A DNA stretch of 64,000 bases from Candidatus Limnocylindria bacterium (GCA_036565345.1 DATCNH010000081.1:2118-66117); one strand, 5' to 3'. Shown: positions 36,247-45,536, counted from the stretch's first letter. Numbers and translations: made by a program. Notes: generated by a model from the sequence alone, not told the origin.

Positions 36247-37227
36247 TCAGCGCACGCGACGCACCACGAAATCGGCGATCGCGGAGAGCGCATCCCGTTC
36301 CGGTCGGTCCGGAAGCTGCTCCAGCGCCGCGCAGGCCGCGCGGTGGAAAGCCAGCGCGCGGTCTCGCGCCCGCTCGACACCTCCGGAAGCGCGGATCGTC
36401 CGCAGCAGGTCGCGGACTTCCGGCTCGGCCTTCCCCACGGCGACGATGCGTGCGGCCAGGTCGGCGTCGTTCCCGCTGGCTTCGACGGCGTAGATCATCG
36501 GCAGCGTCGGGGTGCCCTCGGCGAGATCCTGACCGACCGACTTGCCGAATTCGACCTCATCGCCCGCGACATCGAGGACATCGTCGGTGATCTGGAACGC
36601 CAACCCGAGATTGGTGCCGTAGGCCCCCAGGGCCGCGACATGCGCGGGATCGGCGCCGGCGAGGAGCGCGGCGCCCTGGCAGCAGGCCGCGTACAACGAC
36701 GCGGTCTTGAGCTCGATCCGTTCGAAGTACGCGGCCTCGGTCGGTAGCGAACGGGTCGCCGTCACCTCGGTGAGCTCGCCGTCGCAGAGCGCGAACACGG
36801 TCTGCGCGACGATGGCGATGACCGCCGGATCGGGGAGCACCGCCGCCAGCGCGTAGGCCTTGGCGAACAGGTAGTCGCCGACGATGATCGCCACATCGTC
36901 GCTCCAGGTGACATTGACGGTCGCGATGTTCCGCCGCAGCTCGGCCCGGTCGACGATGTCGTCATGGACCAGCGAGGCGGTATGCACCAGCTCGAGCGAC
37001 TGCGCGAGATTGATGACGATCTCGCGGTCGTGCGCGGTGCCGAATCGCGCCGCGAGGAACACGAGCGTCGGCCGGAGGAGCTTGCCCGGAGATCCGAAGA
37101 GGTGCTGCACCGCGGCGGCAAAGGTCGGATGACCGCCGCGGCCGACGTCGAGCAGCCGCCGCTGCAGCTCTTCGAGCTCGCGTTCGACGGGGGCGTAGAA
37201 CGACTGGTCCGCAGGTGGCGCATGCAC
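36247..37227 (-). CDS. trans-polyprenyl diphosphate synthase (IspA/IdsA family)
   Basis: FARM (LVHDDIVD) and SARM (FQITDDVLD) motifs. The most plausible start is GTG 37225-37227 (MHAPPADQSFYAPVERELEEL...), which lies at the 3' boundary of the upstream group II intron. No canonical start exists further downstream before the conserved GK..RP helix. Confidence 0.7.
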   Translation of the reverse strand: MHAPPADQSFYAPVERELEELQRRLLDVGRGGHPTFAAAVQHLFGSPGKLLRPTLVFLAARFGTAHDREIVINLAQSLELVHTASLVHDDIVDRAELRRNIATVNVTWSDDVAIIVGDYLFAKAYALAAVLPDPAVIAIVAQTVFALCDGELTEVTATRSLPTEAAYFERIELKTASLYAACCQGAALLAGADPAHVAALGAYGTNLGLAFQITDDVLDVAGDEVEFGKSVGQDLAEGTPTLPMIYAVEASGNDADLAARIVAVGKAEPEVRDLLRTIRASGGVERARDRALAFHRAACAALEQLPDRPERDALSAIADFVVRRVR

Positions 37228-39187
37228 TGGTAGGTCAGTGGCGCGGTATCGCACGAAGGCGACCCGTTTCCACTGACCCCCTTTCAAACCGGACGTGCGG
37301 TGTTCCCGCATCCGGCTTAGCGATGGCCTTCTCGTGCAGCACTGACGGCTTCGGGTAGCGAACCGTCCCACGCAACCGGTGCAGGCCTTGGCCCCAAAAC
37401 CACTCCTGGGTCCACTGGGCAGCGCGACCGGCTCGGAGGTTGCGCCCGGCTCGCCGCACGAGGAAGCGGCGTAGCCGAGTACTCACGTAGCGGTCGATGT
37501 CCAGGAACTTGCGAGCGGCGTTGCCGCTGCGGAAGTACTCGCCCCAGCCGCGGAGCACCGGGTTGAGTCGCTCGATCAGGACGCGGACGTCCTTCACCCC
37601 GCTGGCCCGTGGATCGGTGAGCTCATGCACCCGTCGGCGGACTCGTCGCATGCTTCGCGGCGAGGGCCAGCGCTGCAGGTAGTAGCGGCGATAGCCGCGT
37701 ACAAGAAGCTTTCCCGAGACGCGCTTGCGCAGGTAGTGACCGAGGAACTCGAACCCTGCTTGCCCGTGGCTCAGTTGGAGGGTCCGCGTCTTCTCCGGGT
37801 GGAGCTGCAGTCGCAGCCGGTCGAGGATGACCCGCACCCTCCGCTCGGCCTCAGCCAGCGCTTCGGGTGATCGGGTGAGCACCACGAAGTCGTCGGCGTA
37901 TCGGACGAGTGTTCCAAGCTGCGCGCAGCGCCGCTCCCAGACCAGATCGAGCCGGTGCAGGTAGATGTTGGCCAGCAACGGGGAGATCACCCCGCCCTGG
38001 GGAACGCCCGCGACGGTCTCGCGGAGCTGTCCGTTCACCAGCACCCCTGCACCCAGCCACCGGCGAATGAGCTTGAGCACCTTGCGGTCGCTGATCCGCG
38101 TTGCCACCAGCACCATCAGGCACTCGTGGTCGAGCGAGCCGAAGAAGTCGGCCAGATCGGCGTCGAGGACGTACTCGGCACCGTCATTCGCCGCTTCGCG
38201 GATCGCTTCGAGCGCGTGGACGGCGGAGCGCTTGGGCCGGTAGCCGTACGAGGACCGACAGAAGTCGGCCTCGAAGATCGGCTCGAGCACCAGCTTGGCC
38301 GCCATCTGCGCGATGCGATCTTTGACCGTGGGGATGCCCAGGGGGCGCATGCCACCGGCCGGTTTGGGGATCTGCCGCCTCAGTACGGGAGACGGTCGGT
38401 ACCTGCCAGAGCGGAGCTCATCCGCCAACTCCTCCAGGAGCCGCGCGATGCCGTACCCCTCCGCCACCGCAAGCGTCACGCTATCGACGCCCGCAGCACC
38501 GTGATTGCGCCGGACGCGCTGCCATGCCTCCTGCAGGATGTCAGGCCTGCAGATGCGGTCGAAGAGGGCATGGAAACGACGACCCGGTTGTCGCTTCGCT
38601 GCGACGAAGAGCGCGCGCTGGAGGCGACGGACGTTGTCGCTGGGAGCGATCCCCGCGGGGTGGTTGGGTCCGGAGGACCGGACCATGCCCGCGCCCGTAC
38701 CGTTCGCGCGCGCGTGACCAAAGTGAGGGCCCTTCCCTCCGGACAGGTTCTGTTGCCTGCCCATCGTCGGTACTACGACCCCCTCGGACTCCCGCTGCGC
38801 ACCGCTCGACTTCGCCATCGGCTTATACGTGCGGTCCTGCCCTGACCAAGGCGGCGCAGACGGGTCTCTCCTGTTCCGCATCGAACCTTGTGCGCGTGCC
38901 GTTCCCTCTACCCCGGGGAGACCCACGGCGCCGTTTCCGGACGGGTGCGCCGCGGACGTGGCCTTCGCCGTGACGTGCGCGGCTCGGCTCTCCCATTGTT
39001 TCTTTGACGAGGCGGCAGGATTCACTTCATGTTGCGGCCCGCGCGCTTGCTCCCTCCAAAGAGGCTCTTGACGCCCCGCTCGGACGACAGACCTCTCGGT
39101 CTGCGTCTGGGGCCTGCTACCAGGCGTTCCGGTACTTACCTGCGCGGGACCTCCACCCGCTGGCTCGATGCAGCTTCCAGGACGCAC
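37222..39187 (-). mobile_element. complete group II intron (~1.97 kb) with internal RT/maturase ORF
   Basis: 5' end GTGCG (revcomp of 39183-39187). Domain V recognisable at about 37285-37319 (AAGCCGGAUGCGGGAACACCGCACGUCCGGUUU, with AGC triad and GAAC loop). A domain VI-like stem GGGGUCAGUGG...CCACUGACC-UA-CC with a bulged A follows. The intron-encoded protein ORF sits in domain IV. Boundaries are +/- about 5 nt. Confidence 0.8.
37235..38686 (-). CDS. group II intron-encoded reverse transcriptase/maturase (no endonuclease domain visible)
   Basis: N-terminal RRLQRALFVAAKRQPGRRFHALFDRICRPDIL..WQRVRRNHGAAGVD, RT blocks 1-7 with YADDFVV, and a maturase X domain. No Cys/His HNH module. Start taken at ATG 38684-38686; the track ORF is extended through domains I-III. 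Confidence 0.85.
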   Translation of the reverse strand: MVRSSGPNHPAGIAPSDNVRRLQRALFVAAKRQPGRRFHALFDRICRPDILQEAWQRVRRNHGAAGVDSVTLAVAEGYGIARLLEELADELRSGRYRPSPVLRRQIPKPAGGMRPLGIPTVKDRIAQMAAKLVLEPIFEADFCRSSYGYRPKRSAVHALEAIREAANDGAEYVLDADLADFFGSLDHECLMVLVATRISDRKVLKLIRRWLGAGVLVNGQLRETVAGVPQGGVISPLLANIYLHRLDLVWERRCAQLGTLVRYADDFVVLTRSPEALAEAERRVRVILDRLRLQLHPEKTRTLQLSHGQAGFEFLGHYLRKRVSGKLLVRGYRRYYLQRWPSPRSMRRVRRRVHELTDPRASGVKDVRVLIERLNPVLRGWGEYFRSGNAARKFLDIDRYVSTRLRRFLVRRAGRNLRAGRAAQWTQEWFWGQGLHRLRGTVRYPKPSVLHEKAIAKPDAGTPHVRFERGSVETGRLRAIPRH

Positions 39188-39215
39188 CACGCGTTTCAGT
39201 CTAGGAGCGCGGCGG

Positions 39216-41582
39216 TCACGGTCTCCTCGTCGGTTTTGGCACCGGCGTGGGTGCGGGTGGTGGCGTGACCGGGATGGCCCCCGGACTTCCTGACGGAACC
39301 GGCGTCACGCTCGGGCGGACCGGGGCGTAGCCGCAAAGGTTCCAATTGAACCGCCCGTAGTTGTGGAGCCCCGCGGCGGCCTCGCGACCCCAGCGGTCGA
39401 TGTCCTTCTGCCAATCGGGGAATGGCGTGGTGAGCCGGTAGCCGCAGGAGGTGTAGATCGCGCGGTCGTCCGTCGTCGGCTCGGTGCCCTGGACGAACTG
39501 CTCGGTCCAGCGGAAATTGGACGGGCAGTACGGGCCCGGCAGCCTGCCCGATCCGTTGCCGCCGGTGAGCGCCGGATTGACGCACACGACCCGATCGACG
39601 ATACCGGCGGGCCGCTTGAAGTCGTCCGGGGGCAGCCCACCGACGACCGTCTTCATGTAGTCGCGCCACAGGATGCCGGGACCGAGGGCCGACGAGATCC
39701 CGTACATCACCTCGTTGTTCGAGTTCCCCATCCAGACCGCGGTCAGCCGCTGCGGGGTGTAGCCGATCGCAAGCACGTCCTGGAGGTTGTCGGTCGTCCC
39801 GGTCTTCAGCGCCGCCGGGCGCCCGATGCTGGTGAACGGACCGAAGACGAAGGAGCCGCGCACCGGGTCGGTGTTGTCCTTCAGGATGTTCGTCATCACG
39901 TAGGCGTAGCGCTCGTCGAGTACCTGCTTGGTCTCGGGCTTCGAGTAGTCCTTCACGACCTTGCCGTCGCGGTCGACGATCTTCAGGATCATCGTCGGCT
40001 CGATCCGTCGGCCTCCGTTGGCGACGACCTGGTACGCGCTCGCCATCTCGATCAGCCGCATCTCGCCGGCGCCGATGCCGAAGGAGATCCCGAGCTGGGA
40101 TCGGTCCCAGTCACGCTGGATGCCGAGCTGATGGATCGTGTCGATGATCCCGTCGACGCCCACGATCCGGGCGACGTTCAGCGCCGGCAGGTTGAGCGAC
40201 TCGCGGAGCGACTGGCGGATCGTCGTCGGCCCATGCTGCTCCTTCGTCGCGTCTCGCGGCTTGTATTGCGTACCGTCGCCACTCGGCATGGTGAACTCGA
40301 TGTCGTTCAACACGGTCGCGGCGGTCATGTTCGCCTTCAGCATGCCGGCGAGGTAGGTGAACAGCTTGAACGTCGATCCCGGCTGGCGAAGCCCGATCCC
40401 CGCCACGTCGTAGTCGCCCTGGACCTGCGGCGATCGGTCGTAGTAGTCCTTGCTGCCGACGTAGGCGAGGACCTCCCCGGTCGTCGGATCCATGGTGATG
40501 AGCGCGGCGTTGTTCACGTTCGAGCTCTTCAGGTTGTTGACGTGATCCCGCACCTCTTTCTCGGCCAGCTGCTGCATGTTCCAGTCGAGGCTGGTGTAGA
40601 TGCGGTAGCCGCCACGATAGGCGGCCTTCTCGCCGAGGACATTGATGATCTGCTCGCGCACCCGGAAGGTGAAGTGCGGCGCGTAGAGCGATGTGCTGGC
40701 CGGTGTGACCTTGATCGGCTCGTTCTTCGCCGCAGCCGCTTGGGCATCGGTGATGTAGCCCTGGTCGACCATCGCGTCCAGCACCAGGACGCGCCGGGCG
40801 GCGGCGGCGGCCGGGTTCTGGATCGGGTCGTACTCCGAGGGCGCCTGGGGAAGACCGGCCAGGAGCGCCATCTGCCCGAGGGTCAGCTGGCGAAGGTCGC
40901 CGACCCCGAAGTACGTCTTCGCGGCGGCCTTCAGGCCGTACGCCTGGTTCCCGTAGAAGATCTGATTGAAGTACATCTCGATGATCTGCTGCTTGGTGAA
41001 CGTGCGCGTTGCCTCGATGGCGAGCATCGCCTCCTTGATCTTCCGAGTCAGGGTGGGCTCGTCACCGAGCAGCCGGGTCTTGATCAGCTGCTGGGTGATC
41101 GTCGATCCGCCCTGGGCGATCCCGCCCTTGGCGAGGTTCGCCTGCAGGGCGCGGGCGATGCCTCCGACGTCGATGCCGGGATTCGTCCAGAAGGAGTGAT
41201 CCTCGATCGCGACCGTGGCGTCCTGCATGAGCTGGGGAACGTCCGCCAGCGCGATGAGCTCGCGCCGCTCGTCCTCCAGGGTGTACAGCAGGTGCTCGCC
41301 CGACCGGTCATAGATGAACGTCGACAGCGGGACGGGGACGGTGGCGAGGTCGTGGGCCGCCGGAAGATCCGCTGCGAAGTAGCCGAGGAAGGCCGCCGCA
41401 GAGCTGCCGGCGAAGATGCCGAAGGTGATGAGGACCGCGGTGAGGATGCCGGCGACCGTCCCGAGCTTGGACGCGGGGGCGTACCGCCGGGACAGCCGTC
41501 CGCCCTTCCGGTGGGGAAAGCGGTAGCTGCGGTAGGCATGGCCGAGGCGAACGCTGCGGTGGGAGGTCGCCATGGTGTTCAC
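39216..41582 (-). CDS. ponA: class A penicillin-binding protein (PBP1A-type transglycosylase/transpeptidase)
   Basis: GT51 motifs (EDHSFWTNPGID, GGSTITQQLIK), SxxK (STFK), SxN, KTG(T), and a Pro-rich C-terminal tail. Confidence 0.9.
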   Translation of the reverse strand: MNTMATSHRSVRLGHAYRSYRFPHRKGGRLSRRYAPASKLGTVAGILTAVLITFGIFAGSSAAAFLGYFAADLPAAHDLATVPVPLSTFIYDRSGEHLLYTLEDERRELIALADVPQLMQDATVAIEDHSFWTNPGIDVGGIARALQANLAKGGIAQGGSTITQQLIKTRLLGDEPTLTRKIKEAMLAIEATRTFTKQQIIEMYFNQIFYGNQAYGLKAAAKTYFGVGDLRQLTLGQMALLAGLPQAPSEYDPIQNPAAAAARRVLVLDAMVDQGYITDAQAAAAKNEPIKVTPASTSLYAPHFTFRVREQIINVLGEKAAYRGGYRIYTSLDWNMQQLAEKEVRDHVNNLKSSNVNNAALITMDPTTGEVLAYVGSKDYYDRSPQVQGDYDVAGIGLRQPGSTFKLFTYLAGMLKANMTAATVLNDIEFTMPSGDGTQYKPRDATKEQHGPTTIRQSLRESLNLPALNVARIVGVDGIIDTIHQLGIQRDWDRSQLGISFGIGAGEMRLIEMASAYQVVANGGRRIEPTMILKIVDRDGKVVKDYSKPETKQVLDERYAYVMTNILKDNTDPVRGSFVFGPFTSIGRPAALKTGTTDNLQDVLAIGYTPQRLTAVWMGNSNNEVMYGISSALGPGILWRDYMKTVVGGLPPDDFKRPAGIVDRVVCVNPALTGGNGSGRLPGPYCPSNFRWTEQFVQGTEPTTDDRAIYTSCGYRLTTPFPDWQKDIDRWGREAAAGLHNYGRFNWNLCGYAPVRPSVTPVPSGSPGAIPVTPPPAPTPVPKPTRRP

Positions 41583-45464: not shown

Positions 45465-45536
45465 TACCCCCGCGCGGACTCGAACCGCGGCTTCAGGCTT
45501 CGGAGGCCTGCACTCTATCCACTGAGCTACGGGGGC
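45465..45536 (-). tRNA. tRNA-Arg (anticodon CCG)
   Basis: Cloverleaf by eye: acceptor GCCCCCG/CGGGGGU, D-arm GCTC-AGTGGATA-GAGT, anticodon stem CAGGC/GCCTG with loop CU-CCG-AA, T-arm CGCGG-TTCGAGT-CCGCG, discriminator A. CCA is not encoded. Confidence 0.8.

Follow-up and report, generated by a model that had tools for sequence, protein, structure and literature searches.

The stretch of DNA analysed here (hereafter the window) comprises 64,000 nucleotides (nt) from a Candidatus Limnocylindria bacterium (GCA_036565345.1 DATCNH010000081.1:2118-66117) and carries, on the minus strand, a group II intron (37225..39187, 1963 nt, 67% G+C) located between ponA and the body of a gene for a polyprenyl diphosphate synthase. 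The upstream gene, ponA (39216..41582, minus strand; stop codon 39218-39216), encodes a class A penicillin-binding protein with Transgly and Transpeptidase domains (TIGR02074, 508.6 bits). The downstream exon (36247..37224, minus strand) extends from codon 2 (CAT) of the synthase gene to its stop codon, and its product matches PF00348 with 218 bits; the alignments to TIGR02749 and TIGR02748 both begin at profile position 4, with synthase residues 8 and 9, respectively. The start codon assigned to this gene, GTG 39190-39188, lies on the other side of the intron and is preceded, at a distance of 7 nt, by the −10-like hexamer TAGACT (39198..39203, minus strand). The synthase is 100% identical to an annotated protein of a Candidatus Limnocylindria metagenome-assembled genome, and orthologues that are 89-94% identical share the N-terminus M/V-Q/K-A-P-P-A/T-D.

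The presence of a complete group II intron encoding a reverse transcriptase (RT)/maturase without an endonuclease domain, which had been proposed in a first-pass annotation of the window, was borne out by matches in Rfam, Pfam and NCBIfam. The Rfam model group-II-D1D4-4 (RF02003) matched 39162-39027 with 81.4 bits (gathering score 49), and D1D4-6 gave a partial match in domain I in a more permissive local scan. A covariance-model check of the placement of domains V and VI (DV and DVI) aligned RF00029 at 37320-37222, though below its gathering score. The intron-encoded protein (IEP) contains the motif YADDFVV recorded in that annotation; in a profile search, RVT_1 (1.2e-35) and GIIM (1.2e-13) alone matched, with no endonuclease domain, and TIGR04416 was matched with 392 bits (cut-off 300). 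Only one DV and one intron 5′ end are present in the whole window. A search for further copies yielded no second copy in the window or in the collections, in which no intron of the genome or metagenome contigs exceeds 64% protein identity, and located the same insertion at the same locus in assemblies from two other samples.

The 5′ boundary lies at 39187, where the first-pass annotation had placed it and where GTGCG begins. Syntenic loci lacking the intron were located (L081 and L082); these carry the same TAGACT hexamer, read TAGACT-N7-GTG CAG/AAG GCG, and have gene calls that begin at the GTG equivalent to 39190, the synthase gene being positioned 23-25 nt after ponA in syntenic intron-less loci. 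The sequence of L081 is ...ctccTAGACTgaagcgcGTGCAGGCGCC, and that of L082 and L083 is ...TAGACTcaacacGTGAAGGCGCC. In the window, the junctions are ...cgcGTG|GTGCG...CCAGTG|CAT GCG, within the sequence ...TAGACTgaaacgcGTG|GTGCGTCC...CTACCAGTG|CATGCGCCA. Comparison of these alleles indicates that the insert consists of 1963 nt directly behind the GTG start codon and places the intron between codon 1 (GTG 39190-39188) and codon 2 (CAT) of the synthase gene. Because GTG is present on both flanks, DNA comparison alone leaves a 3-nt ambiguity, which is resolved by the covariation of the RNA pairings described below; splice registers shifted by −1 to −3 nt over the repeated start codon are ruled out by covariation at exon-binding sites 1 and 3 (EBS1 and EBS3) and by the relative L056, in which the 3′ triplet is ACG. 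The 3′ end at 37222 favored earlier would remove codon 2, and was replaced with 37225 on the basis of the intron-less alleles and of covariation between EBS3 and its intron-binding site (IBS3). The earlier distance of 28 nt from ponA is retained, but the intron, rather than abutting the synthase gene, lies inside it, directly 3′ of its start codon. As the terminal RUG triplet of such introns (R, purine) is in frame with the host open reading frame (ORF), automatic annotation takes it for the beginning of the host gene and overlooks the intron. NCBI protein P0001 (MHAPPADQ...) begins at the terminal GTG of the window intron (37227-37225), and public annotation makes the synthase look uninterrupted and the intron intergenic, a trap that extends throughout the lineage.

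The architecture of the ribozyme was delineated by comparative folding. Domain I (38869..39182, minus strand, as are all features of the intron) comprises 314 nt and is closed by pairing of UCCUG (39182-39178) with CAGGA (38873-38869), i.e., of nt 6-10 with nt 315-319; its fold contains 97 pairs, 45 of which show compensatory changes (RNAalifold, 25 introns). Domains II and III (approximate limits 38802..38861) also gave consensus folds with compensatory pairs, and an upstream AUG used by gene callers (38818-38816) is located in the loop of domain III. A DIVa-like structured 5′ part of domain IV (38658..38793; 55 pairs, 25 compensatory; RNAalifold, 19 introns) contains the conserved RT start codon, which is embedded in the sequence GGGCAUG, invariant in the lineage, with the AUG at 38686 in the window. 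From this codon, the RT/maturase (37235..38686) extends over 483 amino acids (aa) to a TGA stop codon (37237-37235); it carries RVT_1, GIIM and YADD and no DNA-binding or endonuclease (D/En) domain, and its homology to solved structures starts approximately 40 residues past the conserved AUG. No Shine-Dalgarno sequence precedes AUG 38818 or AUG 38686 in the window copy. The 3′ part of the RT ORF runs over DV (AAGCCGGAUGCGGGAACACCGCACGUCCGGUU, 37287..37318, with the AGC triad), which was placed by RF00029 alignment and is the sole DV-like match in the window, and over DVI (37229..37281; RF00029 alignment and direct reading), in which a bulged A at 37231, 6 nt 5′ of the 3′ splice site, is the presumed branch point. 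The final triplet, GUG (37225..37227), is intronic and in frame with exon 2.

Covariation of the exon pairings was assessed over about 75 relatives. EBS1 (CACG, 38974..38977), which is located in a hairpin loop of domain I, pairs with IBS1 (CGUG, 39188..39191), the last three bases of which (GTG 39190-39188) constitute the synthase start codon, and the partner of EBS3 (G, 38908) is C 37224, with which exon 2 begins. EBS1, with the form 5′-CAYN, makes four base pairs (bp) with the bases ending in the start codon (N′RUG) in 49 of 53 introns; the pairs at position −3 are U-A (42), C-G (4) and U.G (6), and those at position −4 are G-C (40), U.G (6), A-U (2), C-G (1) and U-A (1). The EBS1-IBS1 columns (315/316) were recovered as controls by a blind scan of all alignment columns, and for EBS3 a single column is paired with the +1 base of exon 2 in 85% of cases by five pair types (runner-up column, 64%). 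The EBS1 loops of relatives associated with terminators match the flanks of those relatives, which validates the EBS1 assignment. Positions −5 and −6 show no covariation in the alignment-column scan. With regard to EBS2, complements of at least 5 nt between domain I and the flank from −18 to −5 were no better than those of permuted flanks in a simple k-mer test, and a wider search of 10 introns in which G-U pairs were allowed found no consistent site. The terminal triplet can form 3 bp with EBS1; a role as a mimic of IBS1 was considered and rejected, as its covariation with EBS1 is weak, with two of seven CAC-type introns ending in GUG.

An IEP search retrieved 80 genome-contig and 80 metagenome-contig loci with 39-64% identity, of which approximately 95 belong to a start-codon clade that spans at least ten phyla and occupies genes unrelated to each other. 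At 55 genome-contig sites, the 5′ flank ends in ATG (43), GTG (10), TTG (1) or ATT (1), and all 55 sites with enough flank have the sequence TANNNT 6-8 nt upstream of this triplet (6 nt at 36 sites, 7 nt at 16 and 8 nt at 3), whereas its background frequency is 0.65% at random positions and 1.1% across all RTG triplets of the same loci. The hexamer is exact at 31 of 37 metagenome sites and is one mismatch away at the remainder. Position −4 is C at 41 of the 55 sites, and no other upstream or downstream position is conserved. As the hexamer is present in intron-less alleles, it is derived from the host. When the DNA of 88 sites was folded over positions −34 to −1, no upstream hairpin emerged (mean z, −0.28), and no copy was found at an internal CRUG among the approximately 95 members of the clade. 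The frame of exon 2 is open for at least 100 codons in 56 of 68 loci (12 and 24 for the other two frames), and exon 2 shows third-codon-position periodicity in G+C. The interrupted genes include nadD, dnaX (aligned from profile position 1), smpB and ilvE of Mycobacterium simiae, as well as genes for a DtxR-family regulator, an ArsR-type regulator and an L,D-transpeptidase.

Leaderless genes are recognised in published work by a TANNNT hexamer located approximately 12 nt before their start codon (PMC3160421; PMC3898074), and a C at −4 fits the pyrimidine at −1 and the purine at +1 of their transcription start (Cortes 2013, PMC3898074). Leaderless genes are abundant in Actinobacteria, delta-Proteobacteria, Acidobacteria, some beta-Proteobacteria and Chloroflexi (PMC3160421), and the host range seen for the clade matches these phyla. 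The window site has the same geometry, TAGACT-N7-GTG, with no room for a Shine-Dalgarno sequence; TAGACT would thus be the promoter of a leaderless polyprenyl synthase mRNA. A scan with an E. coli-type sigma-70 model gave no match, this model being uninformative for hosts without a conserved −35 element, and the transcription-start tables of M. tuberculosis are likewise uninformative, as they give only an internal start site for ilvE.

The host itself appears, from its gene starts, to use leaderless mRNAs widely. At least 10 further long ORFs in the window start with TANNNT-N6-8-ATG/GTG, including those at 41573 (−), 42190 (+), 33047 (+), 34158 (+), 25815 (−), 20202 (−) and 1543 (−). One of these is ponA, for which TACGGT-N7-ATG at 41573 yields a 785-aa product, as called in L084, and ATG 41573 rather than 41582 is probably its true start. 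Several such starts agree with independent gene calls in related contigs, as exemplified by ponA (785 aa), an ATPase (401 aa), a glycosyltransferase (368 aa) and the DNA polymerase III delta′ subunit (343 aa). The same IBS1, CGTG, is found at empty leaderless-type starts at 1543 (−), 25815 (−), 42190 (+) and 13722 (+), indicating that the intron is far from saturating its potential targets in the window. A tRNA gene at 45465-45536 (−; RF00005, 67 bits) is unrelated to the intron.

In a crude neighbour-joining tree of 144 RTs, 86 of the 87 introns located at start codons fall within one clade, to which the 40 relatives with a different or unassigned target do not belong. Seventeen unlabelled members inside the clade are copies in which the 5′ flank was initially unplaced. 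One of them, L110, is decayed. Among the other 16, all of which were checked, six turned out to fit the target rule or nearly so, their domain I carrying a 5′ insertion that had initially concealed them, and the 5′ flank of the others cannot be read in the locus. The solved RTs nearest to the IEP are of group IIC (7uim, 4e-60; 6ar1, 1e-57), ahead of IIB and IIA representatives. Relatives with no more than 47% identity (L140, L075 and L064) are situated behind hairpins or T-rich terminators, and the match to Rfam D1D4-4 is common to the clade and to these terminator-associated relatives. We read the lineage as IIC-like, with the terminator determinant apparently exchanged for the start of a leaderless gene. 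It was not filed as class C, since the defining target feature of IIC introns is absent; with YADD in place of the FADD motif, it does not belong to Toro's g2 group either. A c-di-GMP-I riboswitch (L066:2958-3051 (−), 61 bits) adjoins one distant relative of the intron.

Several individual copies show further particularities. At L106:69, an intron is located directly behind the terminal ...CTACCAATG of another copy, forming a tandem. At approximately 4480 in L052, a second intron 5′ end (GTGTGTCCAGCG...) directly follows DV of the first intron, apparently representing a nested intron that disrupts DVI. In L013 (4646 onward), the dnaX frame behind the intron stops after 128 codons, which may reflect a frameshift, an assembly error or a link to the known dnaX frameshift site. 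Embleya sp. NBC_00896 contains at least two copies, L042 (NZ_CP108776) and L086 (NZ_CP108777:1249443-1255933), each behind CTACGGTG...ATG; the RT is absent from the genes tabulated for NZ_CP108777 in a plasmid collection, in an incomplete table that gives 7 features for 3.1 Mb.

The host start codon opens a reading frame that traverses the intron. In the window, this leader frame (38687..39190, minus strand) spans 168 codons, beginning at the host GTG and crossing domains I-IVa, and shares the frame of the RT ORF, in accordance with the earlier observation of an ORF through domains I-III; as a whole, the frame from GTG 39190 into the RT is open for 651 codons. Across nt 1-345 of 95 introns, 37 stop codons occur in the frame of the host start, compared with 265 and 361 in frames 1 and 2, and this region is free of stops in 80 of 95 introns in the host-start frame and in none of 95 in each of the other frames; the chance of an open 115-codon stretch, given the composition, is approximately 0.05. 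Insertions and deletions put the introns in all three phases over the aligned RNA, and the open frame is always that of the host start, which indicates selection on translation itself rather than on a peptide or an inherited sequence. The fate of the frame was counted in the 83 introns with both ends placed. It is fused to the RT ORF in 30, including the window copy, and stops within 40 nt of an RT-frame start, usually within 7 nt, in a further 39. Stop/start arrangements that recur are AUGGUGA in the loop of domain III (16), AUGA (5) and, at the RT start that is conserved, UAGGGCAUG (7). In 2 of the 83, the frame stops without a nearby start codon.

At the other end, the terminal triplet of the intron is ATG in 49 cases, GTG in 3 and ACG in 1, and is therefore a start codon in 52 of 53. 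All copies whose terminal triplet is not a start codon (ACG in L056; AAG in L092 and L110) have either a mutated flank or a broken leader frame. The UGA of the RT frame in the window is located 7 nt 5′ of the terminal GUG, so termination and re-initiation on unspliced RNA would be possible. A stop 7-41 nt before the terminal triplet is present in 14 of 83 introns, and the RT ORF of most relatives ends 100-120 nt upstream of this triplet, before DV.

These observations make it probable that the window contains an IIC-like intron, inserted after the GTG of codon 1, that belongs to a monophyletic, multi-phylum lineage whose niche is the start codon of leaderless genes. According to this model, transcription would begin at the host start codon, such that the 5′ exon of the RNA would be AUG or GUG only, and the host promoter and start codon would drive expression of the intron. 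Ribosomes recruited to the 5′-terminal codon would read the leader frame through domains I-III and thereby make the RT or be delivered to its start; the leaderless mRNA would be re-formed once splicing had joined GUG back to CAU. More speculatively, the target might be recognised through the open complex of RNA polymerase: IBS1 would correspond to positions −1 to +3 of transcription, a stretch that is single-stranded in this complex, and a ribonucleoprotein (RNP) without an endonuclease needs single-stranded DNA. A wider proposal is put forward tentatively, as a serious possibility on which we stop short of an even verdict: that these introns represent a fourth target specificity, in which an IIC-derived clade inserts at the first codon of leaderless genes, expresses its RT via the host promoter and start codon, and leaves a spare start codon at its 3′ end. 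The same tentative proposal would make them the first bacterial intron family with a protein expressed from the upstream exon and with splicing from a 3-nt exon.

A number of points weigh against this model. The designation "leaderless" is drawn from the geometry of the sequence, and the functional statements made here likewise derive from sequence. The ends of the intron are atypical: it terminates in UG rather than the usual AY, and 28 of 97 relatives start with UUGCG or UCGCG instead of GUGCG (e.g., L008:2632, L012:2186, L021:2628 and L030:2647) while keeping open leader frames, with the UCGCG-type introns L008 and L009 occupying two sites in one genome. To our knowledge, a first nucleotide other than G is very unusual for group II introns, and both features suggest that the splice-site chemistry may be unusual. 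The RF00029 match to DV and DVI scored 34.4 bits (E = 2e-4; local search), compared with a gathering score of 40. The covarying position −4 lies 5′ of the inferred transcription start, so DNA or a read-through RNA must serve as the partner of EBS1 there. No terminator was detected in 37100-39400, including the region between ponA and the intron; as ponA ends 28 nt upstream, read-through transcripts with a long 5′ exon are likely. Translation of domains I-III should compete with folding of the ribozyme, and early stops interrupt the leader frame in 12 of 83 introns, apparently decayed copies. Finally, the searches of the intron for a segment that would read the −10 hexamer, and of the flanks for a hairpin, came out empty.

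Among the alternatives, the one that survives best, although we regard it as rather unlikely, is that the host protein is made mainly without splicing, by initiation or re-initiation at the terminal AUG or GUG, and that splicing serves mobility only. The near-universal terminal start codon, its loss only in copies with broken leader frames, and the closely spaced upstream stops described above (7 nt in the window) would all be explained in this manner; moreover, UCGCG and UUGCG copies reside in essential genes such as nadD and smpB, and a 5′ exon of 3 nt should be held only weakly. Nevertheless, the RT ORF of most relatives terminates too far upstream, the terminal triplet lacks a Shine-Dalgarno sequence and sits at the foot of DVI, and the occurrence of the UCGCG type at two sites in one genome implies that these introns must be precisely excised.

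It is unlikely, in our view, that TANNNT is a DNA element read by the protein or RNA of the intron RNP independently of promoter function, such that leaderless genes are hit merely for their content of TANNNT-N6-8-CRUG. The hexamer is indeed present at the surveyed sites, longer stretches are shared within genomes (TAGAATCCCG in L008/L009 and CTACGGTG in L042/L086), and IIC relatives also use a second determinant beside a short IBS1. On the other hand, no intron segment is complementary to the flank beyond the level of permuted controls, the variable spacing of 6-8 nt and the C at −1 are better suited to promoter-to-start geometry, and TAGAAT, TAGGAT and TACGGT recur generally, so that the shared stretches may be coincidental. 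This alternative also overlaps with the model of leaderless-start targeting, as the RNP could read a feature of the promoter.

Insertion at any exposed CRUG, followed by survival only behind leaderless start codons and thus without promoter targeting, is considered improbable. Base pairing accounts for just 5 nt of specificity, and the L106 insertion shows that an intron can be placed directly behind the terminal AAUG of another; this tandem could equally come from a second hit on the same promoter-proximal site. In-frame internal Met codons, which should be far commoner and would also provide translation, have not been hit in approximately 95 copies, and the empty CGTG starts in the window indicate that insertion is rare rather than promiscuous.

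To a similar degree, it is improbable that the window copy is an inactive relic. The sub-threshold RF00029 score, the RT ORF that runs through DV and DVI, and the absence of a second copy from the window and the collections could be taken to suggest decay; however, the copy retains GUGCG, the AGC triad, the bulged A, an intact YADD RT with its X domain, and an open leader frame, its EBS1-IBS1 pairing consists of four Watson-Crick pairs and its EBS3-IBS3 pairing is G-C, the conserved prenyl synthase is intact in frame, and assemblies from two other samples share the insertion. The window intron is therefore described here as intact on inspection and probably active.

Two explanations can be set aside as barely tenable. 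That the leader frame is an unselected by-product of high G+C (67%) and shared ancestry, for which the open-frame probability of approximately 0.05 and the relatedness of the sequences might be invoked, is contradicted by the fact that frames 1 and 2 are never open in 95 introns (265 and 361 stops versus 37) and that the open frame tracks the host start in all RNA phases and ends beside RT-frame starts. That the intron is an intergenic insertion (39187-37222), which starts 28 nt past the ponA stop codon and only abuts the synthase gene, would provide the canonical AU end to which RF00029 aligns, but the model reaches 37222 only by inserting 3 nt so as to end in AU, codon 2 would be lost even though all orthologues have M/V-Q/K/H-A-P-P, EBS3 covaries with the base directly after RUG, and GTG 39190 is the called start in intron-less alleles.

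If the model of leaderless-start targeting is correct, the start of a leaderless gene would constitute a new site choice for a retroelement, and the lineage would exemplify an element living inside essential genes (dnaX, nadD, smpB, ilvE and the prenyl synthase gene) in at least ten phyla. Organellar introns in which translation of the protein begins in the upstream exon would gain a bacterial counterpart, and the question would arise of how a ribozyme whose ends are non-canonical (5′ G/U-U/C-GCG, 3′ UG) can splice when its 5′ exon measures 3 nt. The insertion sites would flag predicted leaderless transcription starts in uncultured lineages, and the short, simple targeting rule could serve promoter-proximal gene targeting. 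Gene callers begin the host gene at the terminal AUG or GUG, which hides these introns from annotation and makes the host protein seem uninterrupted. A 2015 review recognises three target specificities of bacterial introns, namely homing sites, terminators and attC sites (Zimmerly and Semper, PMC4424553). A 2020 survey of intron neighbourhoods and a 2025 specialist paper (PMC12584367) give special contexts, none of which resembles start-codon targeting, and a literature search, which covered few subscription journals, uncovered no publication that connects group II introns to leaderless genes or attributes start-codon targeting to IIC-like introns; the start-codon lineage is widespread and, as it appears, undescribed. 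Cultured carriers include Embleya sp. NBC_00896 (two copies), Mycobacterium simiae, Sorangium and Nannocystis, of which Embleya is practical for experiments.

The first-pass annotation had called the N-terminus of the IEP RmInt1-like, and the lack of an endonuclease domain in this RT/maturase is indeed shared with RmInt1 (class D, IIB3). RmInt1, however, homes to a long site via EBS1, EBS2 and EBS3, whereas here EBS2 was not found and IBS1 consists of 4 nt, the nearest solved RTs are of group IIC, and distant relatives lie behind terminator hairpins; the label thus found no support in this comparison with the described features of RmInt1. In the yeast mitochondrial IIA1 introns aI1 and aI2, translation likewise crosses domains I-III, the RT ORF continuing the frame of the upstream exon. 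These introns are of organellar IIA type, possess an endonuclease domain and follow long 5′ exons, whereas in the present lineage the exon part of the frame is the start codon alone and many relatives use stop/start coupling instead of fusion.

The start/stop-codon family of IIB1 introns (Avi.groEL type; Michel et al. 2007, as summarised in PMC12584367) similarly inserts at the initiation or termination codon of a housekeeping gene and leaves a usable codon behind. All members of that family carry an insertion of 300-700 nt at the base of domain I, and translation of their RT is initiated in DIVa, at a start codon of its own that is served by a Shine-Dalgarno sequence (PMC12584367). As compared by that description only, membership of the window intron was rejected, since its domain I of 314 nt has no room for such an insertion; it also differs in lacking an endonuclease domain and in its IIC-like exon recognition.

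The closest resemblance is to group IIC introns (B.h.I1, O.i.I1, GsI-IIC and that of Eubacterium rectale), whose IEPs likewise have no endonuclease domain. The similarities include a compact ribozyme, with approximately 500 nt before the RT start codon and approximately 125 nt after the conserved region of the RT, a short IBS1 (4 nt) together with a single-pair EBS3-IBS3 and no detected EBS2, and a second determinant, not based on base pairing, just 5′ of IBS1. In the window clade, however, this upstream determinant is a −10 hexamer and a start codon rather than a terminator or other hairpin, the introns are located inside coding genes, essential ones included, instead of being hidden behind terminators, a frame opened in the 5′ exon leads into the RT ORF by fusion or coupling, and the intron ends in RUG. 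The group IIC-attC introns (e.g., S.ma.I2) offer a parallel as a specialised IIC-type offshoot that occupies an unusual and highly specific niche and keeps the downstream gene expressed, which they achieve by means of an outward-facing promoter (PMC3001079). In the lineage described here, the target is the start of a leaderless gene rather than an attC hairpin, and expression of the downstream gene would depend on splicing or on the terminal start codon rather than on an internal promoter.

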